This document shows, one piece after another, positions 16,172 through 56,903 of a stretch of 64,000 bases of DNA; positions within the stretch are counted from its first letter, which is position 1; every line of letters begins with the position of its first letter. Source of the stretch: Nitrospirota bacterium (GTDB taxonomy: Bacteria > Nitrospirota > Thermodesulfovibrionia > Thermodesulfovibrionales > JdFR-86); assembly GCA_963721805.1 (NCBI GenBank), contig CAVRJY010000002.1, positions 32,001 to 96,000 of the forward strand, given 5' to 3'. The position numbers and the translations under genes are program-made. The notes beneath the pieces are model-generated. The model had not been told where the DNA came from and did no database searches. It worked only from the letters and a program-made list of their open reading frames with translations.

Positions 16172-16351
16172 TTCAAAGCGCGCCAAATCGCTTGATACGT
16201 CGTTGGGCTTCAAAGACTCGCCCTCTATGTACGCCCAAGTACACCATCGGGCGGTCTTCTCGCCCTGCCTTGTCTGAAGACGATTTGGGCGCGCTTTCGG
16301 GGGTTAATAGCTGCTACGCAGATGGACCCCCGCGCCCCCGTGGTCAACGGC
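16172..16351 (-). repeat. RPE/CIR-like palindromic element, module A left arm
   Basis: AAAGCGCGCCAAATCG...CGATTTGGGCGCGCTTT hairpin ending in GGTCAACGGC; near-identical inverted copy at 17777-17951. Confidence 0.9.
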
Positions 16352-16391
16352 ATGATTAGAGATATTGCATTTGCTTATGATAGGTGTGCTA

Positions 16392-17414
16392 TCAATTAGT
16401 TAGTTTTGAGCTAATCCCACTTAAATACTCAAGCGCGCTGTCTTCATCGTATATTACCTTTGTCCCATATATTTCATGAAGGGCTAATGGTTTATCGCAT
16501 ATCCAATGTGCAAGGCTTGTTTCAGTTAGAAAGGCATCACAATAGGGTAAAGCCCATTGAGCATGAGAAATATCTGTCAGGTCGTTTGGCTTAAATCGCT
16601 GGCTTTTGTTATATCTAAATAACGCATGGATACTTGCGCCAATATGAATCCAAGGCAATTCCTTGTTAATCTTCTTTTGATCGAAGGCAGCGTAAATGAA
16701 TAGTCGCGTTTGTTTAACTAACTCAGTTCGAACTGTTTCATCCCATGAAGGTGCATGGCCTGTATTCTTAGCATCAAGAAATTCCCAGACCCCATCGATG
16801 TCGTCTTTGAGAACATCCAAGCTTCCTGTAATCTCTAGCATGAATACTTCGTGAAATGTTTTCCAATCTTGGTTTTCATCCTTTCCGTGATTCAGTCTTG
16901 CTATTAAATCTTCTGAATTTTTAGTGTGAAATTCTCCAGAAATATCCTCAGTTTTTCTCCATACATACTTTGCCGGGGTATATGGTTGATTGCCTTTAAC
17001 TTTACTCTCACTATTACGAATAAACAAGATGAGTTCTTGTCCAGCAATACTCAGCGGTGATAAGAAAGTTATCTGTTGGCTTAGTTCGTCCATCACTTTT
17101 GCGATCTGAAGCTTTCCTTGCTCATTACCGTAATTAATTAAATCTTTATGCACATGGGGGCTAAGAGGACAAATTGCAATATTTGAGCGGACGAGCATTT
17201 TCAATATATTGAAGATGTCTACTTGCCTAGGAGATGCCTTGCCAATTGAAGCATTGCTCATATTAATCCAATAGTTGGTATCAAGGTAAATCCTATGCTT
17301 CTTGAGCATTTCTTCTCCAAGTTCGATTTTTGATTGCTCATAAAGTTCTTCATTATGCATAGAAACTATTTTAAACCTTTGTGCAGAATTATTCTCTTGA
17401 AACCATGCGGACAC
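16392..17414 (-). CDS. AT-rich cargo protein, PIN-like nuclease fold likely
   Basis: IYLDTNYWI near the N-terminus and NDLTDISHA..ALPYCDAFLTE near the C-terminus fit PIN-type acidic motifs. Confidence 0.6.
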   Translation of the reverse strand: MSAWFQENNSAQRFKIVSMHNEELYEQSKIELGEEMLKKHRIYLDTNYWINMSNASIGKASPRQVDIFNILKMLVRSNIAICPLSPHVHKDLINYGNEQGKLQIAKVMDELSQQITFLSPLSIAGQELILFIRNSESKVKGNQPYTPAKYVWRKTEDISGEFHTKNSEDLIARLNHGKDENQDWKTFHEVFMLEITGSLDVLKDDIDGVWEFLDAKNTGHAPSWDETVRTELVKQTRLFIYAAFDQKKINKELPWIHIGASIHALFRYNKSQRFKPNDLTDISHAQWALPYCDAFLTETSLAHWICDKPLALHEIYGTKVIYDEDSALEYLSGISSKLTN

Positions 17415-17506
17415 TCATGAGCAATAAAGCAATTCCATCTTGTGTCCGAAGCTGGCACACAATCACAAGATACGCCCCCATACCACAACACCCCGGAACT
17501 GGTCAA

Positions 17507-17536
17507 TGGGAACTGGTTCCTAGGAACCAGTTCCCA
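17507..17536. repeat. Perfect 30-bp palindrome
   Basis: TGGGAACTGGTTCCTAGGAACCAGTTCCCA equals its own reverse complement. Confidence 0.9.
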
Positions 17537-17636
17537 GGAAGCGGTTCCCATGGACGCGTTCCGCCTTTTCGTTCTATCATCGCGCATGAAGTATATAGCA
17601 GATATATTAACGGGACGGAAAACCGGGCGGCCACAT

Positions 17637-17951
17637 GAAAAACGTTTCTGAACGCATGAACACAGGGGTAGCTAAAAAGCGATGAAATCCGCGAGGTTGA
17701 GATGCGTTTTGTTTTTTCATTTGAACGCCCTAAAAAAATACGCGCGGCCGCGCGCGATAACTATGTATATAACTAAGCCGTTGACCTTGTGGGGCGCGGG
17801 GGGCGTCCTTCATCCGTGCCCCCCGAAAGCGCGCCCAAATCGTCTTCAGACAAGGCAGGGCGAGAAGACCGCCCGATGGTGTACTGTGACGTACATGGAG
17901 GGCGAGTCTTTGATGCCCAACGACGTATCAAGCGATTTGGCGCGCTTTGAA
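17637..17951 (+). repeat. Module A right ('long') arm: conserved subterminal segment plus palindromic element
   Basis: 17637-17776 is similar to 34426-34565; 17777-17951 is GCCGTTGACC plus hairpin. Confidence 0.9.
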
Positions 17952-17964
17952 GAAGGATAGTTTG

Positions 17965-19314
17965 CTAAACCAAAAGGTAGTATCTCACCCAGACGTACAG
18001 GGTAGATACCCCGACCGTCAGTATCATGATCGGCATGCCTATGGACATGAAGCGCAGGAACGACACCTTCCGCCCTGCGCGTTCCGCCATCTCCAGCACT
18101 ATCACGTTTGCGGACGCGCCGATAGCCGTCCCGTTTCCGCCGAGGCAGGCCCCAAGCGCGAGCGACCACCATACGGGCATCAGTTCGTGGTGCTGCAGGA
18201 GCTGGACCCCGCTCAAGTTCGGCCAGAGCTGCCTGCCTATGTCCACTATGAGCGGGTTCATCGTCGCCACATAAGGGATGTTGTCGATGAACGCCGAGGC
18301 GAAGGCCGAAAACCACATCACGACCATCGAGGTCGCGAGCATCCGGCCGTGCGTGATGTCCAGGACCCTTATGGCGAGCCAGTTTATGAGCCCGACCTTC
18401 ACGACCGCGCCTACGATGATGAAAAGCCCGATGAAGAAAAATATCGTCGGCCACTCGACCTCGGCGAATACCGCGTGCAGGTTCTCGGGCCGCGACAGGA
18501 GCAGGAGCGCCCCGGCCCCCGCAAGCGCAACGGTCGCGGGCTGCAGGTGCAGTGTCCCGTGCAGGACGAAGCCGACCAGCACGACCGCGAGCACGCACAG
18601 GGACTTGGTGAGCATCACCGGATCGGTAATCGCCTCGCGCTCGTCCATCGCCATCACGCGCGCCTTGAGCGCGTCCGTGGCCCGCAGCTTCCGGCCCCAG
18701 ATCAGCCTTATCGCGCCGAGATAGCTGATCATTACCAGCGCTATCGCGGGCGTGAGGTGAATGATGAAGTCCATGAAGTCCAGATGCGCCTTAGACGCGA
18801 TCATTATGTTCGGCGGGTCGCCGATGAGCGTGGCGGTGCCGCCTATGTTCGAGGCCAGCGCGCACGAGATCAGAAACGGCACGGGGTCGAGCTCCAGCGC
18901 GTCGGCGATGAGCATGGTCACCGGCCCGATCAGGAGCACGGTGGTCACGTTGTCGAGGACGGCGCTCAGTATGGCGGTGACTATCGAGAACGCGGCCAGT
19001 ATGCGGAATGGCTCGCCCCGGCCCCACTTCGCGCTCTTTATCGCGATGTACTCAAACAGCCCGGTCGGCCGCGTCAGGTTCACGATGATCATCATCGAGA
19101 TCAGCAGGCATATGACGTTCCAGTCCACGCCGAGCTCCTCGGTGTGGAACGCGTCGTGCTGGTCGAGCACGCGCAGCACGAGCAGCACCGCCGCGCCGAG
19201 TATCGCGACCGTGGTCTTGTGGAGCTTCTCAGAGACGATCAGCGCATAGGCGAGCGCGAACACCCCGGCCGCGATCCAGAACTGCGCGCTGAACGCGGGA
19301 TCGACCGGGATCAT
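17965..19314 (-). CDS. ArsB/NhaD (IT superfamily) permease
   Basis: Motifs LDNVTTVL, SNIGGTATLIGDPPNI and GGNGTAIGASAN. Confidence 0.9.
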   Translation of the reverse strand: MIPVDPAFSAQFWIAAGVFALAYALIVSEKLHKTTVAILGAAVLLVLRVLDQHDAFHTEELGVDWNVICLLISMMIIVNLTRPTGLFEYIAIKSAKWGRGEPFRILAAFSIVTAILSAVLDNVTTVLLIGPVTMLIADALELDPVPFLISCALASNIGGTATLIGDPPNIMIASKAHLDFMDFIIHLTPAIALVMISYLGAIRLIWGRKLRATDALKARVMAMDEREAITDPVMLTKSLCVLAVVLVGFVLHGTLHLQPATVALAGAGALLLLSRPENLHAVFAEVEWPTIFFFIGLFIIVGAVVKVGLINWLAIRVLDITHGRMLATSMVVMWFSAFASAFIDNIPYVATMNPLIVDIGRQLWPNLSGVQLLQHHELMPVWWSLALGACLGGNGTAIGASANVIVLEMAERAGRKVSFLRFMSIGMPIMILTVGVSTLYVWVRYYLLV

Positions 19315-19393
19315 CTCGATTCACCATTGCCGAGGCGGCCGCTCGGCTTAACCATCAAGTTCCTGGCCCTCATGGGCACCCCTCTCTCCCCTC

Positions 19394-19424
19394 AAAGAAA
19401 CGCCCCGCATCGTCACGGGGCGTT
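19394..19424 (-). terminator. Hairpin terminator after the second PII gene
   Basis: AACGCCCCG/CGGGGCGTT stem followed by TTCTTT on the minus strand. Confidence 0.6.
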
Positions 19425-19461
19425 CCCTGAGGGGTTAGTTAATATCCGGGCGTCGCGGCGA

Positions 19462-19800
<339 letters not shown>

Positions 19801-19813
19801 TTATCCGGTCCTC

Positions 19814-21455
19814 CTATCTGTGTGTGTGGCGCGTCTGGAAGTCAGGGTATGCGGTGACGCCCACCTCGGCCTGGTCCAGACCTTCGATTTCGACCTCTTC
19901 AGGGACCCTGAGCTTGATGAACTTGTCGAGGACCTTGAAGAAGACGTATGAGATCGCAAATACGTATACGAAGTTCGTCAGCGTGCCTATGCACTGGGCC
20001 GCGAACTGCGAGGCGTCACCATAGAACAGGCCCTTGACCGTGCCGGCCACGCCGTTGAAGCCGTCGCCGTAGGTGCCGTCCGCGAAGAGGCCCAGGGAGA
20101 GCACGCCCCATGCGCCGTTTACGCCGTGCACTGAAAACGCGCCTACCGGATCGTCGACTTTGAGCGTGCGCTCGACGAAGAACACCGAGATGATGACGAG
20201 TATGCCCGCTATCGCGCCGATCAGCACCGCCGAGGGCGCGGTGACGAAAGCGCACGGAGCGGTGATCGCGACGAGCCCGGCCAGCATGCCGTTGCACATC
20301 ATGCTGATGTCAGGCTTGCCGTAGCGAGCCCACATGAAGATCATCGAGGAGAACGCGCCGGCGGCCGAGGCGAGCATCGTGTTGGTCGCGATGACGCCGA
20401 TGCGGAGGTCGCCGCCCGCGAGCGTCGAGCCCGCATTGAAACCGAACCAGCCGAAGGCCAGTATGAACGTGCCGACGACGGCCATCGGGATGTGGTGGCC
20501 GGGGATCGCGAAGATCTTGCCGTCCTTATACTTGCCGATCCTGGGGCCGAGCACTATCGCGCCGGCGAGGGCCGCGACGCCGCCGGTCATGTGCACGACG
20601 GACGATCCGGCGAAGTCCACGTGGCCGTGGCCGAGGCCGAAGTTCGTGCCGAGCTGCGGAGAGGAACCCGCCGCCCCATACCCAGTTGGCGAAGAGCGGG
20701 TAGATAACCGCTCCGACGAATATGCCGTATATGATGAAGCTCTTGAAGCTCCAGCGCTCGGCCATCGAGCCGGTCGGGATCGTCGCTGTCGTGTCCATGA
20801 AGACCATCTGGAACAGGAAGAGCGCGAAGACCGAGGCGTCATACGTCACGCCCGAGAGGAAAAATCCCCTCATCCCGAACAGGCCCATGTCGTGGCCGAA
20901 CAGGTGAAGCGTGAACTCGTGGTTGAGTACGCCTGCGCCACCGAGCGAGGCCACGCCGCCCACGCCTCCCATCTGGAGCGCGAAGCCGCATATCCAGTAG
21001 CCGAGCATGCCCAAGCCGTACACCATGAAGTTCATGGCCATCGTGTGGCCCGCGTTCTTGGCCTGCGTGAAACCGGCCTCGACCATCGCGAAGCCTGCCT
21101 GCATGAACATGACCAGGAACCCGGCGACCAGCGTCCAGACCATGTTGATAGCTATCCTGTTGTGGCCGATGACGTCCGCGAGCTTCGTGGCCAGGGGCTC
21201 GGCCTTCGAGAGCGCCGCCATGTCCTCCTTGCTCGGGGCGCCGGAGGTCGCGCCTATCACGTCCGCGGCGCCGCCTGTGTTCGCGCCCGAGGGATCAGGC
21301 TTCGGCTCTTCAGCGGCAGCCGCAGGAGCCGCCGGAGCGGTCGTGGCCGTGGCGTTGACTGCCGCAGGCGCAACTGCGGCTTCGTCGGCATACGCCAGAT
21401 ATGCCGAGCCCGCTATCATTACAATCATCATCAGTGCCATCAACAACCGCTTCAT
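19814..21455 (-). CDS. amt: Second ammonium transporter; +1 frameshift near 20658 (probably sequencing error)
   Basis: N-half FMQAGFAMVEAG..NWVWGGGFLS joins C-half QLGTNFGLGHGHVDFAGSSVVH in another frame. Confidence 0.85.
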
Positions 21456-21556
21456 TTCGGTTCACCTCTTTTTCTTAAATGTTTATTTCCCATCGGCCGG
21501 GATAATAATATCGCCGGCCTGCCCCCGCCGCTGATTCGAGATATCGACATGACTAT

Positions 21557-21660
21557 TGCCAGAAGCATGCCAGCGGCTATCGGCTTGATTTATAAAGGAA
21601 CTGCAAAGGGAACAAAGATGAGACGAGATGCCGATGTTGTAGGGCGCTTACGTTTTTGTC
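21557..21660 (-). promoter_or_regulatory. sigma54 promoter with paired upstream boxes
   Basis: Minus strand TGGCATG-N4-TGGCA (21557-21572); boxes GACAAAAACGTA and TACAACATCGGC 19 bp apart. Confidence 0.65.
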
Positions 21661-21693
21661 GAGGGTTGCGTCGTGGATGCGGTTGAAGATGGC

Positions 21694-22263
21694 TTACTTA
21701 GTGACAGGTACTATCCCGTATTCGCGAAGGGCCGCGCTGACCTCATTGACAGGAAGCCCGATCACGTTATCGAGCGGGCCGTCGATGGACTTGACGAACG
21801 CGGCGGCACCGCCCTGGATCGCATACGCGCCTGCCTTGCCAATCGGCTCGCCGGTGACGACATACGCGGCTATCTCGGCCTCGTTAAGCGGCCGGAAACG
21901 TACTTTTGTCGCGACCGCTCCGGATGCCATCTTATCGCCTTCGAGCACCGCGTAGCCGGTGATCACCTCGTGCTCAGCCCCGCCAAGCATTTCAAGCATT
22001 CGCGTAGCGTCGGCATCGTCGCGCGGCTTGCCGAGCACGCTCGCGCCGATCACGACTATCGTATCAGCGGCGAGCACGACCGCATCAGGCATGTGCATGG
22101 CTCGGGCCTTGCCCTCCGCGATCACGCGCGCAAGCTCAACGGGATCAAGTGTGAGGGTCATGTCTTCAACATAGGGACTCTCGATCACAGAGAACTCGTA
22201 TCCGGCATCGGCGAGCAGCTTGCGCCTGCGCGGGGATGCCGAGGCGAGTACGAGCCTAGACAT
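21694..22263 (-). CDS. maf: Maf-family nucleotide pyrophosphatase
   Basis: Motifs LASASPRR, ADTIV, GKP, KAGAYAIQG and NVIGLP. Confidence 0.95.
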   Translation of the reverse strand: MSRLVLASASPRRRKLLADAGYEFSVIESPYVEDMTLTLDPVELARVIAEGKARAMHMPDAVVLAADTIVVIGASVLGKPRDDADATRMLEMLGGAEHEVITGYAVLEGDKMASGAVATKVRFRPLNEAEIAAYVVTGEPIGKAGAYAIQGGAAAFVKSIDGPLDNVIGLPVNEVSAALREYGIVPVTK

Positions 22264-23422: not shown

Positions 23423-23553
23423 GATCTATATTCTACTTCAGCAGCCGTCCCGGCCGCATCCGCGCAGCGGAAACCCTTGACATGGAACGATGGGCTGCAT
23501 ATTATAGTTGCAGGTTAGGGTATGAAATGGCGGACAACCTAAGGAGGCGGAGG

Positions 23554-24735: not shown

Positions 24736-24787
24736 TGTTTGAGGCTATCGCGCTGAGGATATAAAACAGGGCGGCCCGTGAGGGCCG

Positions 24788-25822: not shown

Positions 25823-25907
25823 TATTCGGCCATCTCCTGATTGACAATATCCATAGCTTATTTTAGCAACTTATATGGTATATTTGTCAATGTTAAATGG
25901 TAAGTAA

Positions 25908-25941
25908 AAAACATGGGGCGGCCCCTGCGGGCCGCCCCATG
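25908..25941 (-). terminator. fhs terminator
   Basis: CATGGGGCGGCCC/GGGCCGCCCCATG stem next to an A run (U tail on minus strand). Confidence 0.8.
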
Positions 25942-25994
25942 TGGAAAATCGACTCCTTATACCCCGACAAATCCAGAGGATTTGGGGGGAGTGT

Positions 25995-29693: not shown

Positions 29694-29697
29694 ATTC

Positions 29698-30941: not shown

Positions 30942-31817
30942 TTGGGGATAAGGCAAGGGGAGGGCGCATTGACGCCAAATCTTACGATAGGCGAGGTCAA
31001 GATAACGTGGCTGCACGGCGGGGTATTCGAGCTCGACGGCGGGACGATGTTCGGCCCGGTGCCGCGCGTGCTCTGGGAAAAACGCTTCGCCTACCACGGG
31101 GACAACTACATAAGCCTGCTTAACCACCCGATGCTCGTGCGCGCCCCATGGGGTACAGCGATAATCGACACCGGCCTGGGCAACAAGCTCACCGAGAAGC
31201 AAAAAAAGATATTCCGCGTGACCGAGGACTGGCGGCTGCTGGAATCGCTCGCGGAGCAGGGCGTCAGCCGCGATCAGATAGACTTCGTGGTGCTCACCCA
31301 CCTCGATTACGACCACGCCGGGGGCGTGGTGATGCATAACCAAGAAGGCGTGGCGGAGCTCACGTTCCCGCGCGCGCAGCACATTGTGCAGCGTGCGGAG
31401 TGGGAGGATGCGATATCGCCTAATAAGCGCGCCGCGCACTCCTACTGGAAGCGGAACTTTGATGGGCTGGTAGCGGGTGAGAACCTCTTGCTCGCTGAAG
31501 GCCCGCACGAGGTGATGGAGGGGTTGGCCGTGTTCCCGACCGGGGGCCACACGCGCGGGCATCAGGCCGTGGTCATATCCTCCGGCGGGCAGAAGGCGGT
31601 GCACCTGGCCGACCTGCTGCCCACGCACGCGCACTTTAACCCGCTCTGGGTTACGTCATACGACAACTTCCCTCTCGATGCGGTCGAGCGCAAGGAGCAG
31701 TTCGAAAAACTCTTCGTCTCTCAGGGCGCGTGGTTTCTCTTCTACCACGACCCGTTCATGGCCGCGTGCCGCTTCGACCCCAGGGGCGAGGTCATCGAGA
31801 AACTTGACTGGCGCTGA
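30942..31817 (+). CDS. MBL-fold hydrolase (YtnP-like)
   Basis: Motifs [18 protein letters not shown] and GHTRGH; start may be ~30969. Confidence 0.9.
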
Positions 31818-33292
31818 TGCCTAAGAAAGCCGTCATCGTCGGCGCGGGCCCGGCCGGGCTCACCGCCGCGTATGAACTGCTCACCAGGACCGATATCGTC
31901 CCGACGGTGCTTGAGGCCTCCGAAGACATCGGCGGCATCTCGAAGACCGTCCATTACAAGGGCAACCGCATCGACATCGGAGGGCACCGCTTCTTCTCGA
32001 AGTCCGAGCGAGTCATGCGCTGGTGGGCCGACGTATTCCCGATAGAGGCCGCGCCGGAGCCGGACCCCAAGCACACCGACAAGGTCATGCTGCGGCGAGA
32101 CCGCCTCTCGCGGATATTCTTCCTCGGGAAGTTCTTCCCGTACCCGATCCGGCTGACTCTGGACGTGATGCGCAAGCTGGGCGCGCTTCGTGCATTTAAG
32201 ATATGCCTGAGCTACCTCATGGTCCGCCTCAGGCCGATCAGGCCCGAGCGGTCGCTCGAGGACTTCTTCATCAACCGCTTCGGACGCGAGCTGTACCTCA
32301 CGTTTTTTAAGGGCTACACCGAGAAGGTCTGGGGCGCGCCGTGCGCCGAGATCTCGCCCGAGTGGGGCGCTCAGAGGATCAAGGGCCTCTCGGTAGGGCG
32401 GGCGGTCAGCCACGCGATAAGGCAGTCGCTTGGGGGTGGGCAGCCGGCCGTTGAGACGAGCCTGATCGAGAATTTTTTGTACCCCAAGCTCGGGCCGGGC
32501 CAGCTCTGGGAGGAGGTCGCGGCGCGGGTGCAGCAGCGCGGGGGCAAGGTGATAACGGGCGCGGAGGTGGTGGGCGTCGAGACCTCGGGCAGGCGCGTGA
32601 CTGCTGTCACGGCCAAAGACCGGCAGACGGGCGGGCTTCAGCGCCATGAGGCGGACTGGTTCTTCTCGACCATGCCGGTGCGCGAACTTGTCGCGGCGAT
32701 GGGCGAGGCGGTGCCGCAAGATGTGAGGGACGCGGCTGCGGGCCTGCAATACCGCGATTTCATGACCGTGGGGCTGCTGCTTAAAAAGCTCAAGACTCCG
32801 GTGCCGGACAACTGGATATACGTCCAGGAGCGCGGGGTCAGGATCGGGAGGCTACAGGTCTTCAATAACTGGAGCCCGTGGCTCGTAGCCGACCCGGAAG
32901 GCACGGTATGGCTGGGGCTTGAGTACTTCTGCACCGAGGGGGACGGGATGTGGTCGATGCCTGACGACGAGTTCGCGCGGTTCGCGATAGGCGAGCTTGC
33001 CTCGATCGGGCTGATCGATCCAGCCGACGTCCTCGACCATAAGGTGCTTCGCGTGCCCAAGGCATATCCGGCATACATCGGCGGGTACGATAGATTCGGC
33101 GTGGTCAGGCGATACCTCGACGGACTCGAAAACCTCTTCCTGATCGGCCGAAACGGGATGCACCGGTATAACAATATGGACCACTCGATGCTGACCGCGA
33201 TGGCCGCGGTCGAAAACATCATCGCTGGGCGCACTGACAAGACCAATATATGGGCGATCAACGCTGAGGACGACTATCACGAGGGTTCATGA
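31817..33292 (+). CDS. NAD(P)/FAD-dependent oxidoreductase (glycan-locus type, UDP-Galp mutase/PPO-like)
   Basis: Motifs [18 protein letters not shown] and [14 protein letters not shown]. Confidence 0.85.
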
Positions 33293-33461
33293 AAGCGCTC
33301 CAAATCGCTTGATACTGCGTCACGCCTCGCAGCCCGATCCTCAACGTATGTCCATATACGCCTCCGGTCGGTCTGCTCGCCGCTCCTTGTCTGAAGACGA
33401 TTTGGGCGCGCTTTCGGGGGAGAGAATAACGTAGCCCCCCGCGCCCCACGAGGTCAACGGC
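33290..33461 (-). repeat. Palindromic element, module B left ('short') arm
   Basis: GAAAGCGCTCCAAATCG...CGATTTGGGCGCGCTTTC plus GGTCAACGGC; overlaps the upstream TGA stop. Confidence 0.9.
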
Positions 33462-33524
33462 TTATATTAAGAGCATCATGACCGTTGCCCCTGCCGCACA
33501 TGGAATGGAAGGGAATTCAGTCGA

Positions 33525-34085
33525 TTAATCCTCAGCTCTCCATGCGATAAGGTCTAAGTGTATTCGATGATTAAAACTGTATTCATTTTTTGCCATATCT
33601 GTTGCAACTGACTGATAATTATCGTTTGTTACCTTATTTATTGCAGTTATCGTAGTCCATTTAGTGTTCTTATTATGGGAATCTAATTTTTTACCAACAT
33701 AGCTATCTAAAGGGACTTCAAGGAACGGCATTAAATGGCTCAACTGATATTTTTCATATATGAATCGATTATAACAAGCGTTGCGCATAAATATATTTAA
33801 ACATTTTCGCGCTATACCCCAAAGCGCAGTCTTTTCCTTAGAGTGATCTATGATTAAATATAATTTGTCAACCAAATTCTTTGTATGCTCGTCTATTATG
33901 TTTGAGTAATCCGCTTCATTCATAATCAACCTGAATTGATTGAAATCCATTCCGCCCAGATATTCTCTAACGCATTTACCAGTCCCCGTTGGATATCCCC
34001 TTACTGTACTAACCCCTATGGAAACGTTTGCGAGATGTTTCGTTAATGCCTTATAAAAATCAAATACATTGGCCTTATCATTCAT
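33525..34085 (-). CDS. AT-rich cargo hypothetical protein
   Basis: 186-aa ORF with GGAGG SD; motif GIARKCLNIFMR...VPLDS; function not assignable. Confidence 0.7.
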   Translation of the reverse strand: MNDKANVFDFYKALTKHLANVSIGVSTVRGYPTGTGKCVREYLGGMDFNQFRLIMNEADYSNIIDEHTKNLVDKLYLIIDHSKEKTALWGIARKCLNIFMRNACYNRFIYEKYQLSHLMPFLEVPLDSYVGKKLDSHNKNTKWTTITAINKVTNDNYQSVATDMAKNEYSFNHRIHLDLIAWRAED

Positions 34086-34425
34086 GTTTCATAGCCTCCA
34101 CTCTGTGATTTAATATGAAACAATAAAACTGAGAGAGTTAAATGGCACCAGCCAGTTCTCATCCCGATGTGCATCATGCTCCAAAGATACCACAACCGCT
34201 CGGAGTATACCAAACATTTTTCCGAGGGCTGCCGACGTTCATTAACCATAGTTAATCGAAAGTTAGTAGAAAACGCACGGGCATCAATTTTTCCTATCAA
34301 CTTAGGTTTATATATAAACCGTAGGATATCGCTTTTTTCATTTCTTTGTGATTTAATACGGGATGATGCTTAGATGGGTATTTTTGAGGTCGCGGAAAGC
34401 GAAGTTGGACGCCGATGGAGCGGTG

Positions 34426-34762
34426 GAAAACGTTTCTGAACGCATGAACATGGGAGTGGTCAAATTATCGATGAAATCCGCTGGCTTGGACTGTTTTTTC
34501 TCTGTTCATTTGAACGCTCAAAAAAAATGCGCGTACGCGCGCGGTAAGTATGTATATAACTAAGGTGACGAGCGCAGGTCTAATTAAGCCGTTGACCACG
34601 AGGCGCGGAGGCAGCGGCTGGGCCGCGCACTTCGCAAAGCGCGATAAATCGCGTCAGGCTAGGAACGGCGAGGAAAACGTCCGCAAGTGTACTGAGACGT
34701 ACTCTGGAGGACGGATTTCCGAAGCCGTGACAACGTATCACGCGACTTTAGCGCGCTTTCAA
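34426..34762 (+). repeat. Module B right ('long') arm
   Basis: Subterminal AAAACGTTTCTGAACGCATGAACA...CATTTGAACGC..A-tract..GCGCG..TATGTATATAACTAAG is shared with module A; hairpin at 34588-34762. Confidence 0.9.
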
Positions 34763-34809
34763 GAGGGCAAAGTTTGCAGCAGCTTTAGCCAAGAAGGTAT
34801 AATGCGTTG

Positions 34810-43387: not shown

Positions 43388-43745
43388 TCTCCAGGCAGGT
43401 CTTCTGACTCCCGGTTCGTCCTACTCGTCCTGCCTTCCCGTCCTTTCGAACAGTGGCGTTGAACCTATCTCAAAATTGCTTCTGGCTGCAAGAGGCTGAA
43501 ATCGCGGGATACTGTGTCGTAAAGGGAAAAATCGTTCCTCGATGTAGCGCTGCTACACCTGCGTCCGATTTTTCCTTTACTCCTTGTCTGCCACGATTTC
43601 CCCTCTCTTTCGCTTCAGAATCAATTTTGAGACAGGTTCCGCTGAACTTTCGTCCCCGGTTACAGCGGCGGGACCGTCCCCGAATCCAACGGGGTTCCCT
43701 ATTAAGCCCCCGGTCTGAGATCAGACCGTATGGGCGCCTGGAGCA
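43388..43745 (-). ncRNA. Cobalamin riboswitch (with ~180-nt insertion)
   Basis: Minus strand: AATAGGGAA, GTCCCGCCGCTGTAA, GCCACTG, GGGAAGG and B12 box AGTCAGAAGACCTGCC. Confidence 0.92.
43461..43639 (-). repeat. RPE/CIR-like palindromic element inside the riboswitch
   Basis: Terminal IR GAACCTATCTCAAAATTG / CAATTTTGAGACAGGTTC; core AAATCGCG.GATAC...CCTC..GTA..TACAC...CCTTGTCTG..ACGATTT as in the other copies. Confidence 0.85.
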
Positions 43746-43871
43746 GAGATTATATGAAAAACCGGAGGACCAAAGCAAGATCGTATTTCAGCCCCCGGCG
43801 AGGCGGCCCCCTTCGGCGGGAAGAACTCTATGTTATTGACACTATTTCCTAAAGTTTGCTAAGGTTCTTAG

Positions 43872-44660: not shown

Positions 44661-44663
44661 GCC

Positions 44664-45970: not shown

Positions 45971-46239
45971 TACGCGGCAAGAACATAAAGATGGCCGTCA
46001 TCGACATAGCCGACGGCTATACGATAGTAAACCCCATACTCCTGAAGCCCCTCGACGACGAGACGCTCAAGGAGCTCTACGTCGGGCTCCAGAAGGCGAT
46101 GGTCGACATACGCCGCGAGAAGTTCCCTTTCCACGACTCCGAGGCCCTGAGGTTTCGGAACATGAAGCTCCAGAGGCTCAACACCTCCGCGATGGTCGTC
46201 AGGGCCTACGCGAAGACCAAGCGCATACTGCTGTTCTGA
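45967..46239 (+). CDS. Hypothetical protein
   Basis: ATGA overlap with tatC; host-like codon usage. Confidence 0.75.
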   Translation: MIRGKNIKMAVIDIADGYTIVNPILLKPLDDETLKELYVGLQKAMVDIRREKFPFHDSEALRFRNMKLQRLNTSAMVVRAYAKTKRILLF

Positions 46240-46301
46240 GGGCCTCACGCGGGCGGGTTTTCGTTGACACCCCAAGGTGTCTGATGCTATCGTTAATAAG
46301 A

Positions 46302-49371: not shown

Positions 49372-49504
49372 GGGTGCCACGGGCACCTCTTACTCTCAGC
49401 AATCGGTCGACTGATTTCTAATTGGGGCAAGGTTGCCACGGAACTGGTGCTGCATGATGGGGTGCGCGGCCGAATAAGACAAAGTTTCGAGCTGAGGCCG
49501 CGGC

Positions 49505-51058: not shown

Positions 51059-51059
51059 T

Positions 51060-51335
51060 TTATTTCATCCCCGGATCAGGCCTTAGATTTGTGCGGTTAG
51101 ATGGGATCTGCAAAAGCGGCACCGGGTCGTACCCGCCCGGGTGCCATGGATGGCAGCGCGAGATGCGGCAAATTGCCAGCCATGAGCCTCGAAGCGCACC
51201 GTGGCGCTCTATGGCCTCGCGGGCGTAGTCCGAACACGTGGGCGCGAACCTGCAGCTGCCCCCTAATAGCGGGGAGAGCAGGAGCTTATAAAGCCCGATG
51301 AGGAGTATGAGGGACTTCCTTGGCAGATTGGGCAT
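51060..51335 (-). CDS. yidD: Membrane protein insertion efficiency factor
   Basis: [10 protein letters not shown]...[14 protein letters not shown]. Confidence 0.95.
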
Positions 51336-51364
51336 GGGGGAGCGTGGCGGTGAGAGACGGAGCG

Positions 51365-51505
51365 CTACAGCGAGAGCCTTCTACGGCCCTTTGCGCGCCT
51401 TCTCCTGATGACCTCGCGTCCGCCCGGCGTGCGCATCCTCTTGCGGAACCCGTGGACCCTGCTCCTTTTCTTCTTGTGCGGATTGTATGTTGTGTATGCA
51501 GGCAT
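51365..51505 (-). CDS. rpmH: 50S ribosomal protein L34 (absent from ORF track)
   Basis: [46 protein letters not shown]. Confidence 0.96.
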
Positions 51506-51548
51506 AGTTCGATACTATAATCTCCGGCCCCCCGGAATGTCAACCGGG

Positions 51549-52646
51549 CTATACCAGCAGCCTGTCGCGCTTCGAGGTGATGTCTTTTAAAAGGGACTCG
51601 AACGAGGCGATGAAGGACTTGACCCCGTCGGCCTCGAGCTTCTCCGTGCAGGCGTCTATGTCTATGCCGCGGCCGCGGAGCTTATCGAATACGCCCGCGG
51701 CCTCGCCGATCCCGTCGTCTATCGCGACGCGCACCGAGCCCTTGGCCTTGAAGGCGTGCAGCGTGGCCTCCGGCAGCGTGTTTACGGTGTCCGGGGCGAT
51801 GATCTCCTCTACGTACTTCACTGGGCTGTAAGCGGGGTTCTTCGTCCCGGTGCTGGCCCAGAGCAGGCGCTGCACCGATGCGCCCTTAAGCGCGCCAAAG
51901 CGCGCCGAGCCGAACGCGGAGCGGAAGTGGCTGTACGCGACCTTCGCGTTTGCGACCGCAGCGAGGCCCATCAGCGAGGCGTCCGCGCCCTGCGACTCGA
52001 GGATGCCGTCGACCATCGTATCTACGCGGCTTACGAAGAAGCTCGCGACCGATGCTATGCCCGAGACCGGCTTGCCCTCCGCCGCTCGGCGCTCAAGCCC
52101 GCGCAGGTAAGCCTCGGTGACGTCGATGTAGCGCGCGACCGAAAACAGCAGCGTGACGTTTACGCTCACGCCCTGATATATGAGTTCCTCTATCGCGGGG
52201 ATGCCCTCGCGGGTGGCCGGGACCTTGATCAGGATATTAGGAAGGTTGAGGCGCGAATACAGCTCGCGGGCCTCGGCCACCGTGGCCGCCGCGTCGTATG
52301 CGATATCCGGGGAGACCTCGATGCTCACGAAGCCGTCAGCCCCAGCCGTGGCGTCGAACACCGGGCGGAGCACCGCCGCCGCATCCGCGATGTCGTCGAG
52401 CGCGAGGCCGAAAAACAGCTCCTTCTCGCCGCGCATGCCGCCCTTGAGCAGGGCGCGCAGGCGCGAGTCGTAGTCGCTGCTCCCCACTATCGCCTTTTGG
52501 AAGATCGTGGGGTTGGAGGTCACTCCGGTGATCGCGTCTTCCGAGACCCAGCGCTGCAGTTCGCCGGAGTCGACCAGTTTGCGGCTTAGGTTATCCAGCC
52601 AGACGCTCTGGCCCACACGATTCAATTGACGAAGATTGTTCCCCAT
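51549..52646 (-). CDS. tal: Transaldolase
   Basis: Motifs SVWLDNLSR, GVTSNPTIF, IKVPAT and VNVTLLFS. Confidence 0.95.
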   Translation of the reverse strand: MGNNLRQLNRVGQSVWLDNLSRKLVDSGELQRWVSEDAITGVTSNPTIFQKAIVGSSDYDSRLRALLKGGMRGEKELFFGLALDDIADAAAVLRPVFDATAGADGFVSIEVSPDIAYDAAATVAEARELYSRLNLPNILIKVPATREGIPAIEELIYQGVSVNVTLLFSVARYIDVTEAYLRGLERRAAEGKPVSGIASVASFFVSRVDTMVDGILESQGADASLMGLAAVANAKVAYSHFRSAFGSARFGALKGASVQRLLWASTGTKNPAYSPVKYVEEIIAPDTVNTLPEATLHAFKAKGSVRVAIDDGIGEAAGVFDKLRGRGIDIDACTEKLEADGVKSFIASFESLLKDITSKRDRLLV

Positions 52647-52714
52647 TTTAAAAACCCTCCCCAAGATTGGATGTGGGTATTCTAACAATTCCGGCTGCCT
52701 GCATGAAAGTGCGC

Positions 52715-53030
52715 GAAAGTCGCGCCAAATCGCGTGATACGTTGTCACGGCTTCGAAGACGCGCCCTCGGAGTACGTCTCAGTACACCGTCGGGCGGTCT
52801 TCTCGCCGTTCCTAGTCTGACGCTGATTTCTCGCGCTTTAAGTTTCTGATGTCTCCATGAGCGAGCGGTCAACGGCATGGTTTGAGGGCCGGTCATACGC
52901 ATATATACGCATATCGCGCGCGCGCGTTTTATTTTATGTGTTCGGATGTTTGAGGCAAATAAGCGGCTAACCATCTGGAAAACATCGTTTTTCTGAGTCC
53001 GGCGCTGTTCGGATGTTCGGATAATTCGCG
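52715..53030 (-). repeat. Module C left ('long') arm
   Basis: Hairpin 52715-52876 is closest to module B right arm (shared GAGTACGTCTCAGTACAC). Diverged subterminal segment has CCGAACA repeats, an A tract, (CG)n and TATATA. Confidence 0.85.
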
Positions 53031-53429
53031 CGGTTTTCGACCCTGCCTCCGAACGCGCGTCGATGCCCGCCTCATTCGCTTCACAGCCCATCGGATATGC
53101 ATCTATCTTGCTCATAGCACCACTATACAACAAACAATGCGATACTTTGGTTTATATATAAACCGAAGTTGATAGGAAAAATTGACCCTCGTGCGTTTTC
53201 TATTAACTATAGTTAGTGAAGATGGCAGTCTGAATCGAGGCATTCTTGTGAAATAATGAACCGTGACTATTTTAGAACGAACCTTTGCCGGGTATCCCGC
53301 GGCCATAGCCGCTTTCACAATAGCCCTCGTGCTTTATGGGTATTGCCCGGCCACCGTGGAAATATTTCGATTGGATTTTAATACACCAATGCGGCGGATA
53401 GTGCTATGCTACAAGCGAACAACATTTTT

Positions 53430-53485
53430 TTAAGGAGAAAACCTTAAGGAGAAAACCTTAAGGAGAAAACCTTAAGGAGAAAACC
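53430..53485 (+). repeat. 4 x 14-bp perfect tandem repeat containing the SD
   Basis: (TTAAGGAGAAAACC)4 ends 4 bp before ATG 53490. Confidence 0.95.
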
Positions 53486-53489
53486 ATAC

Positions 53490-54617
53490 ATGGATGATTC
53501 AAAGGAAATCCGTAAATACGAAAAAACCATCGAAGAGAAAAATGTTCTCATCGAGAAGTTACGGGATTCAGTTGCTCTTTTTTCCCGGCAAGCAGATGAC
53601 GCGCAAGTAGCGCGAATTTTCGCTGAGTATATATTCAATACGGTACACGAACCAGTTTTGATCATTGATGGTGAATTCAAGGTCATCACCGCCAATGTCT
53701 CTTTTTATCGCGACTTTGCTGTTACAGAGCAAGACATTGCAAAGAAGTCCCTCTTCAGCATGGCGGACAACAAGTTGGACATCCCGGGATTAAGGAATCT
53801 CCTCAATGAGATATTGCCAGGCAGCGGCCGGATACATAATTTTCAGGTGGAAATCGAACTGGCCGGGATCGGGCTCAGAAAGTTCCTCCTGAATGCCACT
53901 AAAGTCCCCCAAACGGACGATACGAGAGAGTTTATCCTGCTTGCATTCAATGACGTAACCGAGCAATCCCGGATGGATGAGCAAAAAGACACCCTGATGA
54001 GAGAGATGCACCACAGGATAAAAAACAACCTCGCCGTCATCCAGGCGCTGCTGAGGCTTCAGTCAAAGGATATCGACGATGAAATAGCCAGGGAATATTT
54101 CGATGAGACCCATGCGCGTGTGCAATCGATATCCCTGATCCATGAGATGCTGTATCAATCCCGCGACCTTTCAAACATCAATTTCCTGGAATACATAGGC
54201 AAGCTGATTAAATCCCTCGTCCGTTACAATAAAGAAAATTCAATGGTAAGCATTTCGTTAAACATCGAGTCTATTACCCTTGACCTTGACAGCATGCTGC
54301 CGCTTGGATTAATAGTCACCGAACTTGTGACAAACGCATTCAAGTACGCGTTCCCTGATGGAAGGAGCGGGCATATAACGATCGGGCTTTCAAGCAAGGA
54401 TAATGATCACCATGTCCTCAGCGTAAAGGATGACGGGGTAGGCATCCCTCAGGACTTCGATATCAATAAGGCCGATTCTTTTGGGATGAAGATCATATCA
54501 TCCCTGGTCAAGCAGATCAGGGGGGGCTTGGAAATCCTCAGAGATGGCGGGTCGGAATTCAGGATCAGCTTCCGCAACTTGAAGCCATCCGATTTAGCGG
54601 AAAAAAGCGGTTCATAG
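53490..54617 (+). CDS. PAS + HisKA_2 histidine kinase (cargo)
   Basis: PAS domain; HHRIKNNL, ELVTNAFKYAF and DDGVG. Confidence 0.88.
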   Translation: MDDSKEIRKYEKTIEEKNVLIEKLRDSVALFSRQADDAQVARIFAEYIFNTVHEPVLIIDGEFKVITANVSFYRDFAVTEQDIAKKSLFSMADNKLDIPGLRNLLNEILPGSGRIHNFQVEIELAGIGLRKFLLNATKVPQTDDTREFILLAFNDVTEQSRMDEQKDTLMREMHHRIKNNLAVIQALLRLQSKDIDDEIAREYFDETHARVQSISLIHEMLYQSRDLSNINFLEYIGKLIKSLVRYNKENSMVSISLNIESITLDLDSMLPLGLIVTELVTNAFKYAFPDGRSGHITIGLSSKDNDHHVLSVKDDGVGIPQDFDINKADSFGMKIISSLVKQIRGGLEILRDGGSEFRISFRNLKPSDLAEKSGS

Positions 54618-54846
54618 GCTGCGCTGGTCCCGGATAGCATTGACGGTTCAACTCCCGGTCGCATGTCTTTAAAGGAAACTTCCCAAGATGGACGATCTGT
54701 TCAAGGGCGCCGGGGGACTCTTGGCCCGCGCCATCGCCAATCACGCATATACCGTTTCATAATTTTGAACGCATATTTTTCTTGATTTATTATTTCCCCC
54801 GGCACATAATACTCGGCAGAAATATATCTCGCTGGGGAGGCGAACA

Positions 54847-54969
54847 ATGGCTAAGGATAAATTTTTAAGGTTGTTGTGTCTTTTGGTGTCTGTTGTGCTC
54901 GTTTCATTTGTCGCAGGCTGCACTGGCAGCGGCAGCAGCGGGAGCGTCTTTACTGGACGAACAGCTTGA
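54847..54969 (+). pseudogene. Truncated (or very small) lipoprotein gene
   Basis: GGAGG SD; MAKDKFLRLLCLLVSVVLVSFVAGC lipobox, then stop after 40 aa overlapping the convergent gene. Confidence 0.5.
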
Positions 54970-56531
54970 ATTTCTTTTGCGTAATTCTCAGGTACCATTT
55001 CAGGAAAGCGGGAGTGTAAATAACCTTTATGAATTTACTGAGGAACTTATAACGTTTGCTCTGCGCCCAAAACCTCTTGAGGCAATGCCTGCATTGCACG
55101 AGCTTGTTGAAATACCGCAATGAAGCCGGGAAAAGCCATAACTCGGTATTTTCTTGCAGGACATTGAAATTCTTATAGGTGTTGAGTTTGTTGCAGTGCG
55201 GGCACTCGACGCTCAAAGAAGTATCGTCGACCTGCTCCGGGACGGAGGAGGGACTATGATTTATCCTCGCCTTGGTGATTTCCGTCAGGATATAGCAGAT
55301 ATCGTCGACGGGCATCTGGGTCATATTGTACTGGTCGAAGAAATGATTTTCTATATAGTCGATCTTGTCGGAGATGATGCCTTTTTCCACGCAATAGCGG
55401 TAGAGGACGCTGTCGGGGCACGGGAATATAAAATGCAAGAATATGGCGGCCCAGCTGTGCTCCTTCCAGAAAGCCATCGTCTCGTTGAAGGTTTCAAGCG
55501 TTTCTGCGACGTCGCCGAAGATAAAGCCCGCCTGCAGGCCGATGTTATTTTCGAAGGTCATATGCAGGGCCGCGTGGATCTGCTCGGGGGATATTTTCTT
55601 TTTCATGCTTTTCAGTATCGTGTCGCTGTAGCTCTCAAACCCGAAGCTGACGAGATAGCAGCCGGCTTCCTTCATCGCCTTCAGCATTTCGGAAGAAATC
55701 CTGTCGACGCGGAGCTGGCAGAACCATACCACGTCCCACTGGACCGTTTTCTTCAATTCGGAAAACTTCCTGCAGAACTCAAAGACCCTGTCCTCGTTAT
55801 ACGCAAACAGCTCGTCATAAATCGAGACGAGGTTGATGCGGTACTTCGGGATGGCCAGGCTTAGCTCCTCGATTATCGAGTCTATCGAGCGCTGCCTGTA
55901 TTTGTTGCCCAGCGGGTGATAGCAAAATGTGCACTGGTAGGGGCAGGAACGCGACGCGATGAGCGGGTAGACCCGCGGATAATCGAATAAATAATTGACG
56001 ATATTGTCGGAGGACTTGGCCGCATCCAGCGACAGGCCCAGTTCGAGCGCTTCCCAATCCGGCAAGGGCAATGCGTCTAGGGCGTCTATGGGTTTCCTCT
56101 TGCCGGTGCATACAAACTTGCCGTTGTCGAAAAAACCGATGCCGTCCACCCCGTCGACGGGCGCGCCGCTTCGGATGGCCGTGACAAGTTCGACTATGGT
56201 GACCTCTCCCTCGCCTATAACCGCATAATCGATCCCAAGGTGCGACGATATAAGTTTCGGGTTCGGAGGTTATTATGCCGCCGCCCACTATCAGCTTGCA
56301 GCCGAAAGGCTTCGCGGTCTGGATTATCTTCCTTATCTCTTTCAGCTCGCAGGAGAGGCCGCCTGTGGCGACGATATCGTACTTGTTGTCTCTCAGGACC
56401 TGCGGCAGCGTGCCGGCCCTGTGTTTGCTCAGACAATCGACGTCAAAACCCGCTTGTTTCAAGGAGGCGACGATATAAGCGATACCTGGAGACTCAAGTG
56501 AGTTCGGCGGATTTACACATAAAATTTTCAT
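54950..56531 (-). CDS. B12-binding radical SAM protein; +1 frameshift near 56255 (cargo)
   Basis: N-terminal B12-binding region (VNPP, IVGGG, IGEGE); CPYQCTFC; GFES; C-terminal CPHC..CRHC. Confidence 0.85.
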
Positions 56532-56726
56532 ATATTTATAAGCGGTTTCCCCTTAGAGATATATTTATTTTCGATAGCATAGCACATGGACAACCGCCAT
56601 TGTGAGAAATATAGGCATTAAATAGCCGAAATTATCTTGCGGCAACCATGGGCTGCTTACCGCCCCTGTGATATAATTCACGATGGCCAGGGACACCGCG
56701 CGGGCGTATTATTAAATCCAATCTAA

Positions 56727-56903
56727 GTCTTTGACCTCGTGGGGGTGCGGGGGGGCGTCCGTTGTCCTCTCCCCCCGAAAGCGCGCCCAAATCGGCTTCA
56801 GACTAGGAACCGGACGAAAAACGACCGCAGTCGTATATGGACATACTTCGAGGATCGTTTTTCGGACGGTGACGACGTATCAAGCGATTTGGAGCGCTTT
56901 GAA
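56727..56903 (+). repeat. Module C right ('short') arm
   Basis: GTCTTTGACC plus hairpin; shares apex GTATATGGACATAC with module B left arm. Confidence 0.9.

Follow-up and report, generated by a model that had tools for sequence, protein, structure and literature searches.

Inward-facing pairs of a polar structured repeat border AT-rich accessory-gene cassettes in a Nitrospirota genome

In the genome of a Nitrospirota bacterium, a repeat of about 180 nucleotides (nt) is abundant, polar and conserved in its fold, and many of its copies stand in inward-facing pairs around AT-rich accessory genes. The stretch studied here, hereafter called the window, is 64,000 nt long and corresponds to positions 32001-96000 of contig C2; the genome comprises 2,775,341 bp in 9 contigs, has about 60% GC and is 94% complete. 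The window contains three modules, A, B and C, each formed by two copies of the repeat (arms) and the enclosed DNA (cargo). The breakpoint between arm and cargo lies at a conserved 21-nt sequence, the head, at the inner end of each arm, and the two arms of one module are no more closely related than arms taken from different modules. By analogy with pdif modules, we propose that resident heads dock cassettes through conservative recombination catalyzed in trans, a reading that we prefer while giving it somewhat less than an even chance.

Abundance, Polarity and Fold of the Repeat

A profile was built from the six arms of the window and searched against the whole genome with nhmmer. It gave 237 matches, 174 of them full length (90 on the + strand and 84 on the - strand; a + arm has its outer end on the left and its head on the right). 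The outer edge of an arm is T-rich. Next comes an imperfect hairpin of 125 nt, closed by pairing between AAAGCGCGCCAAATCG and CGATTTGGGCGCGCTTT; it is followed by a second GC hairpin, which is variable (hairpin 2), and the head forms the inner end. Hairpin 2 occurs in two types, with 107 type-1 and 74 type-2 arms. The head of about 21 nt begins with GGTCAACGGC, which is followed in short ends (defined below) and in solo arms by the consensus WTTGATTAGAG; beyond the head, the sequences diverge. Read by eye, the head is an imperfect dyad, GGTCAA-CGGCA-TTGATT (6-5-6). The mean identity of the arms is about 73%, and exact 22-24-mers are common to 66-75 copies.

Folded as single-stranded DNA, the left arm of module A reaches -45.5 kcal/mol (z -5.5), and none of 200 shuffled sequences was as stable. 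The fold was then examined in a MAFFT alignment of the 100 module arms. RNAalifold found only 17 pairs in this alignment; a 37-pair structure borrowed from one copy was used instead, and its pairs were counted. Over the 100 arms, 93% of the cells were paired, a percentage that is inflated by the single-copy origin of the structure, and compensatory changes, the counts of which are not inflated by it, were found in 21 pairs. None of 500 shuffled controls reached any of the five fold measures, and sliding the pairing partners by 1-3 columns left 29-44% of the cells paired. Among the wobble pairs, 82 G-T against 57 A-C represent a mild strand asymmetry, which is too weak to separate RNA from DNA. 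No Rfam family was found for the arms or for the junction module described below, either at the gathering score or at E values up to 1.

The position of the arms relative to genes was judged from crude open reading frame (ORF) calls. The outer end lies toward a gene 3' end in 105 of the 174 full-length arms, and 57 of those are within 15 bp of the stop codon. Outer ends also lie toward gene starts, for example those of gmd and selA in the window. Thus, the polarity of the arms tracks the cargo and not host transcription. The conserved fold, the abundance and the polarity of the repeat are observations.

The genome also contains tandem arrays of partial repeat units, at C1:456393-456634, C1:962560-963039 and C1:1056547-1057310. 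In one array, model positions 1-73 occur three times head to tail; in another, model positions 18-117 occur three times at a spacing of 193 bp. Within one module, there are several internal heads in direct orientation. The tandem arrays may be slippage or recombination products of the repeat.

Arms Pair Head to Head around Low-GC DNA

Neighboring full-length arms less than 6 kb apart were sorted by orientation, and the median GC content of the DNA between them was determined:
Heads inward (+-): 49 pairs, median GC 0.459.
Heads outward (-+): 15 pairs, median GC 0.619.
Same direction (++): 12 pairs, median GC 0.606.
Same direction (--): 10 pairs, median GC 0.589.

We defined a module as two full-length arms with heads inward and less than 7 kb apart, and obtained 50 modules. 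They are scattered over six contigs, between housekeeping genes. Their interiors range from 8 to 6,031 bp, and the inner GC content is below 0.50 in 40 of the 50, compared with about 60% for the genome. Two head-to-head pairs are nearly empty, their arms being separated by just 8 bp and 65 bp. At least one of the 50 (C1:489149-495320, GC 0.645) merely consists of two arms around the host znuABC/fur genes. A preliminary description of the window, made from the sequence alone, had implied that copies genome-wide would be non-random, paired and placed around low-GC DNA. The genome-wide counts (49 inward against 15 outward pairs; 40 of 50 interiors below 50% GC) bear this out, and a random, unpaired distribution lacking low-GC enrichment was not what we found. 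As a rough estimate, which was not computed, 174 arms placed on about 2,500 gene ends would give a handful of chance pairs.

The same polarity is seen when the low-GC DNA is taken as the starting point. Among the 154 low-GC islands of the genome (low-GC stretches of at least 600 bp), 72 are faced by a head, on both sides in 27 cases and on one side in 45, while the outer end faces only 5. For solo arms, the kilobase past the head is below 0.5 GC in 15 of 74, and the kilobase past the outer end in 1 of 74.

Larger islands were also noted. A low-GC island of about 25 kb at C2:150-25450, just upstream of the window, contains the gene of a 445-aa tyrosine recombinase, and neither of its edges has an arm. 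The region C2:300000-335000 contains three integrase genes and the sole serine recombinase gene of the genome. Larger islands thus take a different, conventional route.

Modules A, B and C in the Window

All six arms were recovered by nhmmer within a few bases of the places given in the preliminary description. The interiors are AT-rich, as had been stated, with a GC content of 0.404 in A, 0.389 in B and 0.483 in C, compared with 0.59-0.68 in the adjacent kilobases. The head reported for the inner edges, GGTCAACGGC/GCCGTTGACC, is present in five arms, and the variant GTCTTTGACC is present in the right arm of C. The two arms of A are 96% complementary across 135 nt. Module C had been described as having the same architecture in the opposite orientation; indeed, B-left matches C-right over 129 nt at 81%, B-right matches C-left over 42-54 nt at 85-86%, and an extra segment occupies the right end of A and B and the left end of C. 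This segment is present at one end of each module, as described. Its length had been given as about 140 bp; it is in fact longer, at about 210 bp (A), 355 bp (B) and 384 bp (C). We call it the junction module; the end that carries it is the long end, and the other is the short end. A Pfam search of the three cargos detected neither a transposase nor an integrase, and no flanking target duplication was found; both had been noted as lacking. The features of the three modules are as follows.

Module A
16169..16353, + strand: left arm, short end (nhmmer E 3.2e-49, model positions 1-179), with hairpin 1, hairpin 2 and the head GGTCAACGGC at 16342-16351 read from the sequence.
16392..17414, - strand: cargo, a 340-aa ORF with no Pfam, PADLOC or NCBIfam match.
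17509 and 17523: two GGAACnnGTTCC palindromes just inside the junction module (motif scan).
17560..17784, - strand: junction module, long end (nhmmer extension matches).
17645 and 17718: TGAAC-type repeats in the junction module (motif scan).
17741-17754, - strand: GC palindrome in the junction module, followed by an inward T-run (motif scan).
17775..17954, - strand: right arm, long end (nhmmer E 3.5e-51), with the head GCCGTTGACC at 17777-17786.

Module B
33286..33463, + strand: left arm, short end (nhmmer), with the head at 33452-33461.
33525..34085, - strand: cargo, a 186-aa ORF with no Pfam, PADLOC or NCBIfam match.
34230..34584, - strand: junction module (nhmmer score 355).
34305: palindrome GGTTTATATATAAACC in the junction module (motif scan).
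34433 and 34507: TGAAC-type repeats in the junction module (motif scan).
34542-34529: inward terminator-like hairpin with T-run in the junction module (terminator-like site scan).
34585..34764, - strand: right arm, long end, hairpin-2 type 2 (nhmmer E 1.6e-41), with the head at 34588-34597.

Module C
52712..52878, + strand: left arm, long end, type 2 (nhmmer E 7e-41), with the head at 52867-52876.
52877..53260, + strand: junction module (nhmmer and sequence).
52915-52926: GC palindrome CGCGCGCGCGCG in the junction module, followed by a T-run; the simple terminator scan did not list this palindrome.
52940 and 53007: GTTCGGATG iterons in the junction module (motif scan).
53149: palindrome GGTTTATATATAAACC in the junction module (motif scan).
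53490-54617, + strand: cargo, a 375-aa PAS/HisKA_2 histidine kinase (Pfam).
54950-56149, - strand: cargo, a 399-aa radical SAM protein with a weak PADLOC match to PDC-M51A.
56240-56605, + strand: cargo, a 121-aa ORF without match.
56725..56906, - strand: right arm, short end, type 1 (nhmmer E 2.8e-47), with the variant head GTCTTTGACC at 56727-56736.

Look-alikes of the A cargo in the Atlas belong to unnamed clusters, mostly of Pseudomonadota. At module B, the TGA stop codon of a 491-aa oxidoreductase ORF (31817-33292) lies inside the outer edge of the left arm.

Two further features of the window were recorded. A weak, hairpin-only fragment of the repeat lies at 43498..43610 on the + strand (nhmmer E 1.3e-05, model positions 16-129), and a cobalamin riboswitch (RF00174, 38.1 bits, - strand, 43614-43756) adjoins it. 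A 351-nt inverted repeat with 71% complementarity (14366-14716 and 19464-19814) corresponds to two glnK-like P-II genes of 115 and 112 aa. Each adjoins an amtB-like gene; module A and the permease gene lie between the two ammonium-transporter pairs, which face each other.

Partner Arms Are Unrelated and the Parts Assort Freely at the Head

The preliminary description regarded the paired arms as the left and right ends of one traveling element. Core identity has a median of 0.75 within modules and 0.72 between modules (permutation p about 0.09). An identity of at least 0.9 was reached by 6 of the 50 within-module pairs and by 510 of the 4,900 between-module pairs. The partner was the closest relative for only 1 of the 100 arms. 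In addition, the distances of partner arms from the consensus were uncorrelated (Spearman 0.15, p 0.29). These results do not support that claim. What stands of the earlier reading is that cargo modules without integrase occur genome-wide between inverted structured repeats and have asymmetric ends and low-GC accessory cargo.

The types of hairpin 2 in the long and short arms of a module are likewise independent (counts 8/8/6/7). The junction module is carried by 29 of the 107 type-1 arms and by 19 of the 74 type-2 arms, regardless of type, and junction subtypes A, B and C are spread proportionally over the two arm types. At one locus, there are two tandem heads, and the second head begins the junction module. 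The independence of hairpin-2 type, together with the tandem-head locus, indicates that the parts outside and inside the head assort freely.

Target duplications were sought at the outer boundaries. A flanking repeat of at least 10 bp was found in none of the 50 modules, and the length distribution was equal to that of shuffled partners. For duplications of 3-8 bp, searched over 15 x 15 boundary offsets, at most 4 of 44 modules matched, which is within or barely above the range of shuffled partners. Among the 74 solo arms, a long flanking duplication was present in 2 (16 and 11 bp), and nothing was found at 4-8 bp. The 16-bp case is the solo arm C5:73523-73705, which lies between exact direct repeats AATGCGCACTGTTGGC.

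Unrelated partner arms and the lack of a duplication argue against a cut-and-paste or copy-and-paste DDE transposon with the arms as its ends. A non-autonomous composite transposon, of the kind of a mobile insertion cassette or a pair of miniature inverted-repeat transposable elements (MITEs), would move as a whole, arms included, by means of a transposase acting in trans. The cargo is indeed bracketed by inverted arms of about 180 nt, the near-empty arm pairs look like a MITE, pairing far exceeds the expectation for independent placement, and cargo without transposase suits a non-autonomous element. Nevertheless, besides the missing target duplication and the unrelated partners, no module is present twice, arm type and junction subtype assort freely, and no autonomous copy was found: the only DDE enzymes are those of an IS481-like element, which has unrelated ends and makes 7-8 bp duplications, and one fragment. 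We consider such a transposon quite unlikely.

Alternatively, the arms may serve as portable homology, and incoming arm-cargo-arm DNA from other strains may replace the content of an arm pair by homologous recombination. Such replacement after transformation or transfer has been proposed for the minimal mobile elements of Neisseria. With about 200 arms sharing long conserved blocks (the 22-24-mers in 66-75 copies), material for it exists; it requires no dedicated enzyme, which matches the empty enzyme census below, and a target duplication is neither expected nor seen. However, crossovers should carry the inner part of an arm along with the cargo, and hairpin-2 type is independent of both the partner and the junction subtype. 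Moreover, the conserved join of 21 nt is too short for efficient RecA recombination, and the arms agree by only about 73% on average. We consider homologous recombination through the arms an unlikely explanation.

Had a circle been integrated, another, directly oriented head would be expected at the opposite end of the cargo, and we searched for such heads. Orphan head motifs numbered 24 and 21 on the two strands, compared with about 16 expected by chance per strand, and only a few of them are real fragments; this candidate was rejected.

The Junction Module at the Long End

The junction module is non-coding and about 210-385 bp long. The genome has 57 loci of it, 48 of which directly adjoin the head of a like-oriented arm. 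In the 50 modules, one junction module is present in 29, none in 21 and two in 0. Going inward from the head, the first feature is a GC palindrome followed by a T-run. Such an inward terminator-like site was found in 35 of 48 long ends and in 17 of 133 short ends. Iterons resembling GTTCGGATG, in 4-5 copies, are present in 27 of the 48 long ends, while 128 of the 133 short ends have none. The palindrome in the junction module is GGTTTATATATAAACC in B and C, and an array of GGAACnnGTTCC in A.

An 85-aa ORF runs through the junction module in 13 modules; in that of C, it is on the minus strand. Substitutions by codon position numbered 2341/2390/2581, and single-base differences were 447 synonymous against 1237 non-synonymous. 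The ORF was rejected as a gene because it has no coding signature. A general promoter role was also rejected, since consensus scans gave 0 and 3 sites compared with about 1 expected and the first cargo ORF has no constant orientation relative to the long end.

Of the modules that have a long end, 19 have it at the right and 10 at the left. If the inward heads were sites of an invertase, the cassettes would flip in place as phase-variable units and would not move. Inverted sites do flank each segment, both the side of the long end and the cargo orientation, which is nearly random, would fit flipping, and the genome encodes one serine and several tyrosine recombinases. Inversion leaves the foreign, site-unique and AT-rich content unexplained, however; no outward or inward promoter logic was found, and no module was observed in both orientations. 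We regard inversion as very improbable.

Cargo of the Modules

Within the modules, there are 97 ORFs of at least 100 aa, many of which have no Pfam match. Pfam identified HepT with its MNT partner (three modules), MazF with MazE, ParE and Gp49/HigB-like proteins (two), as well as Abi_C, a KAP NTPase, a Cthe_2314-type HEPN protein, an HNH endonuclease, a large HD-CE/TPR NTPase, a Ser/Thr kinase, SRAP and GNAT acetyltransferases (two). PADLOC was run on 59 of the 97 ORFs, namely those unnamed by Pfam and a few others, and added PD-T4-6/mad6-like, PDC-S20, PDC-S59, PDC-S32, a TIR-effector-like stretch and PDC-M51A. The cargo is thus rich in toxin-antitoxin and candidate defense genes. It differs in each module; the only shared items are two insertion sequences (ISs) and a few distant toxin-antitoxin paralogues.

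Recombinases, Transposases and Insertion Sequences

As the mobilizing agent, an enzyme of the HUH or REP-associated tyrosine transposase (RAYT; REP, repetitive extragenic palindrome) kind or a tyrosine recombinase had been suggested in the preliminary description. A PF01797 search of the genome found no RAYT. The only Y1 transposases are encoded by six identical IS200-type copies (143-144 aa, in 602-bp units), the hairpins of which (CCCCGTGGCTTGCCACGGGG) are unrelated to the arms; the search thus yielded no enzyme for the HUH/RAYT suggestion. No Y2 transposase was found in the genome, in a search that had no positive control.

The genome encodes seven tyrosine recombinases, including one XerD-like and one XerC-like protein (the Xer-type genes are at C2:584638 and C1:636956), and one serine recombinase (C2:319522). 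No integron integrase is among the seven, the best score to TIGR02249 being 126.5 against a cut-off of 265. The rve-type transposases are those of ten copies of one IS481-like element and one fragment. Neither IS110 nor TnpB was found in the genome. No cognate IS with arm-like ends was found, and the multi-copy ISs have unrelated ends.

The two IS families were located relative to the arms. The IS200-type copies lie at C1:42213-42814, C1:366468-367069, C1:1251880-1252481, C1:1452029-1452629, C4:138454-139056 and C4:146419-147021. Each is inside a module or no more than about 600 bp from an arm, and two are just past a GGTTTATATATAAACC palindrome.

The IS481-like element is 1,200 bp long, encodes a 344-aa rve transposase and has the ends TGTAAAGGTTACGC.../...GGACTTTTACA. 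Its ten copies are nearly identical. Five are on C1 (81101-82300, 762294-763493, 669723-670922, 963112-964311 and 1454652-1455851), and the others are at C2:113386-114910, C2:286368-287567, C2:405829-407028, C4:309075-310274 and C6:5531-6730; none is in the window. By its coordinates, each copy is at the edge of a GGAACnnGTTCC palindrome array, 300-620 bp inward from the head of a long arm. A duplication of 7-8 bp (e.g., CCCCGGAA) was seen in 8 of the 9 copies inspected. The IS481-like element appears to home to the junction module.

Relatives and Other Sequence Collections

A covariance model of the repeat found diverged copies in 3 of 10 other genomes of the same family (17, 19 and 4-5 matches, with 150 candidates scored per genome) and matches in 1 of 30 genomes from other families of the order. 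The copies in relatives are mostly the hairpin core alone (model positions 14-134). A BLAST search with one arm gave no match in 40 relatives, and the A cargo was not found among the 40. At 12 sampled loci of relatives, no AT-rich cargo was seen beside the head side.

The host genes next to the modules were also traced. The oxidoreductase beside module B has counterparts at 80 loci in many phyla, with 43-59% identity and no close relative. In the family-level genomes, the permease (70-73% identity), selA (59-67%) and amtB (57-69%) were found and are not syntenic with the window; gmd was not found there with the query used. No arm was detected beside selA, and no arm match was present on the amtB contigs of these genomes.

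Outside the order, two patterns gave 0 matches in viral contigs, and the arm with junction module had no match in plasmids and phages. An exact 22-mer of the arm on one metagenome contig was ruled out as a copy of the repeat by the covariance model (7.9 bits). In four sequencing runs from freshwater sediment or soil, fractions of 0.00-0.17 of the sampled words were present. The read contigs from these runs were short and of low depth; their joints linked repeat copies or lay in conserved genes, and none bridged a module without its cargo.

The diverged hairpin cores without evident cargo, in 3 of 10 family and 1 of 30 order genomes, bear on another explanation, in which the arms come second. 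An insulator or terminator repeat would insert, or be kept, at borders between host and foreign DNA with its head on the foreign side, and the cassettes would be ordinary islets that had arrived by other routes. Also consistent with it are the independent origin of the arms, the very stable hairpins and the outer ends at gene 3' ends (105 of 174, 57 within 15 bp of the stop). Nevertheless, it does not account for the large islands and the 82 of 154 low-GC islands without arms, for the junction module, which always abuts the head at the same position, or for outer ends at gene starts (gmd, selA). Further, no mechanism for sensing island borders is known. We judge this explanation to be improbable.

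Discussion

The results fit best with two layers. The first is a REP/REPIN-like repeat, old, polar and resident, of which the bare hairpin is also found in related genera (REPIN denotes a hairpin-forming REP doublet). The second is the cassette, which comprises everything between two inward heads. Neither resident arms nor co-traveling arms alone explain strong pairing together with unrelated partners.

In the docking mechanism that we favor, the arms would be resident, independently arisen copies of an abundant polar structured intergenic repeat. The exchangeable unit would be the stretch between two inward-facing heads, that is, an AT-rich cassette with one to a few accessory genes. At one end, such a cassette would often start with the non-coding junction module, made up of the terminator-like hairpin, 4-5 GTTCGGATG iterons and the palindrome(s). 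Cassettes would most likely be joined to heads, or swapped between head pairs, by conservative recombination in either orientation, leaving no target duplication. A recombinase encoded elsewhere would act in trans, in the manner proposed for Xer on pdif or of cassette exchange between inverted sites. The architecture, the independence of partner arms, the breakpoint at the head, the lack of duplications and the nature of the cargo are observed; we infer that the cassettes move at all, that crossover takes place in the head and that the iterons serve as an accessory site for protein binding.

Several results weigh against this mechanism. At the sensitivity used, 21 of the 50 modules lack a junction module, and 82 of the 154 low-GC islands have no arm at their edge. 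In 16 modules, the first cargo ORF points away from the long end, and in 11 it is directed toward that end; given this mixed orientation, the junction module is not simply a promoter. None of the recombinase genes (seven tyrosine and one serine) lies beside an arm by its coordinates. Frequent gene conversion among about 200 copies could erase the signal of a common origin of partners, and for this reason a transposon with the arms as its ends keeps a small probability. The approximately 50 head-to-head pairs are not themselves explained by resident arms. As for cassette movement, no empty or refilled orthologous site, circle or junction read was seen in the relatives, none of them close, and the sequencing runs covered.

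A bolder form of the proposal is a dispersed, chromosome-wide counterpart of an integron. About 50 landing pads would trade defense, toxin-antitoxin and accessory cassettes through an unknown or recruited Xer-type recombinase, the iteron-bearing junction module would be the accessory site of the cassette, and the whole would be a new class of cassette system in an uncultured lineage. We consider this possible and rather doubtful. A literature search, in which the sources were available in part, found no description of such an arrangement.

If the proposal is true, the genome has a cassette economy on the scale of a sedentary chromosomal integron, with about 50 slots in 2.8 Mb and with no integrase, attC array or plasmid. 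It would be a third architecture, beside integrons and pdif modules, for storing and swapping accessory and anti-phage genes, and would point to a usable recombinase-site pair. On the soberest reading, structured repeats border about half of the small foreign islets. Head-flanked islets then provide a simple sequence rule for locating accessory and defense genes in this group, and the repeat-defined platform is a clear case of one to which two IS families home.

Comparison with Known Systems

The analogy to pdif modules and integron cassettes drawn in the preliminary description agrees with the architecture found here. Integron cassettes are likewise many, unique, AT-richer than their surroundings, mostly promoterless-looking and rich in toxin-antitoxin genes. 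The attC sites of integrons are imperfect palindromes with a conserved fold that are alike within a species, as the arms are, and the platform is a specific target of insertion sequences in both systems. Unlike in an integron, no integrase was found here, each cassette has two inverted boundary elements instead of one attC, and the cassettes are dispersed and not in a tandem array behind attI. Compared by eye with the integron core consensus (RYYYAAC/GTTRRRY), GGTCAAC and GTTGACC each match at only 6 of 7 positions. Species-specific attC repeats of sedentary chromosomal integrons are the subject of PMC13638679.

REP sequences, bacterial interspersed mosaic elements (BIMEs) and REPINs (PMC3116915, PMC3337134) resemble the arms. 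Like the arms, they are abundant extragenic repeats of about 100-200 nt that form a long hairpin from two inverted halves, often just after stop codons, vertically inherited in related lineages and hot spots of IS insertion. In contrast to the REPIN/RAYT system, in which a usually single-copy RAYT gene is flanked by the repeats, no RAYT was found here, and each repeat has a polarity, with a head of its own. Inward-facing pairs around foreign genes account for about 100 of the 174 copies, which also differs from REPINs. To our knowledge, no such pairing around foreign genes has been described for REPINs.

Mobile insertion cassettes and MITE-flanked composite units (PMC5444012, PMC6382973) share with the modules inverted repeats around passenger genes and no transposase inside. 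Such units have short IS-derived repeats, a fixed duplication and a cognate IS in the same or related genomes; none of the three was found here. Palindrome-associated elements of the IS200/IS605 group have neither inverted ends nor a duplication, and their TnpA recognizes their own subterminal hairpins. Single arms are polar and hairpin-rich, with a long duplication in 2 of 74 solo copies; the only TnpA in the genome has other hairpins.

The pdif modules of Acinetobacter plasmids are integrase-less, have 28-bp XerC/XerD sites and are lined up on plasmids. Like them, the modules are small, with one to a few genes that are often toxin-antitoxin or accessory genes, and have two inverted boundary sites, no target duplication and no recombinase inside; a recombinase would, by this analogy, be supplied from elsewhere. 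Unlike them, the boundary is a structured repeat of about 180 nt ending in a 21-nt head instead of a 28-bp site, the modules lie dispersed among housekeeping genes of the chromosome, and one end has a junction module with iterons. By eye, the head is unlike the dif consensus. By its architecture, the system would seem to work most like pdif modules, with a different and much larger boundary element.

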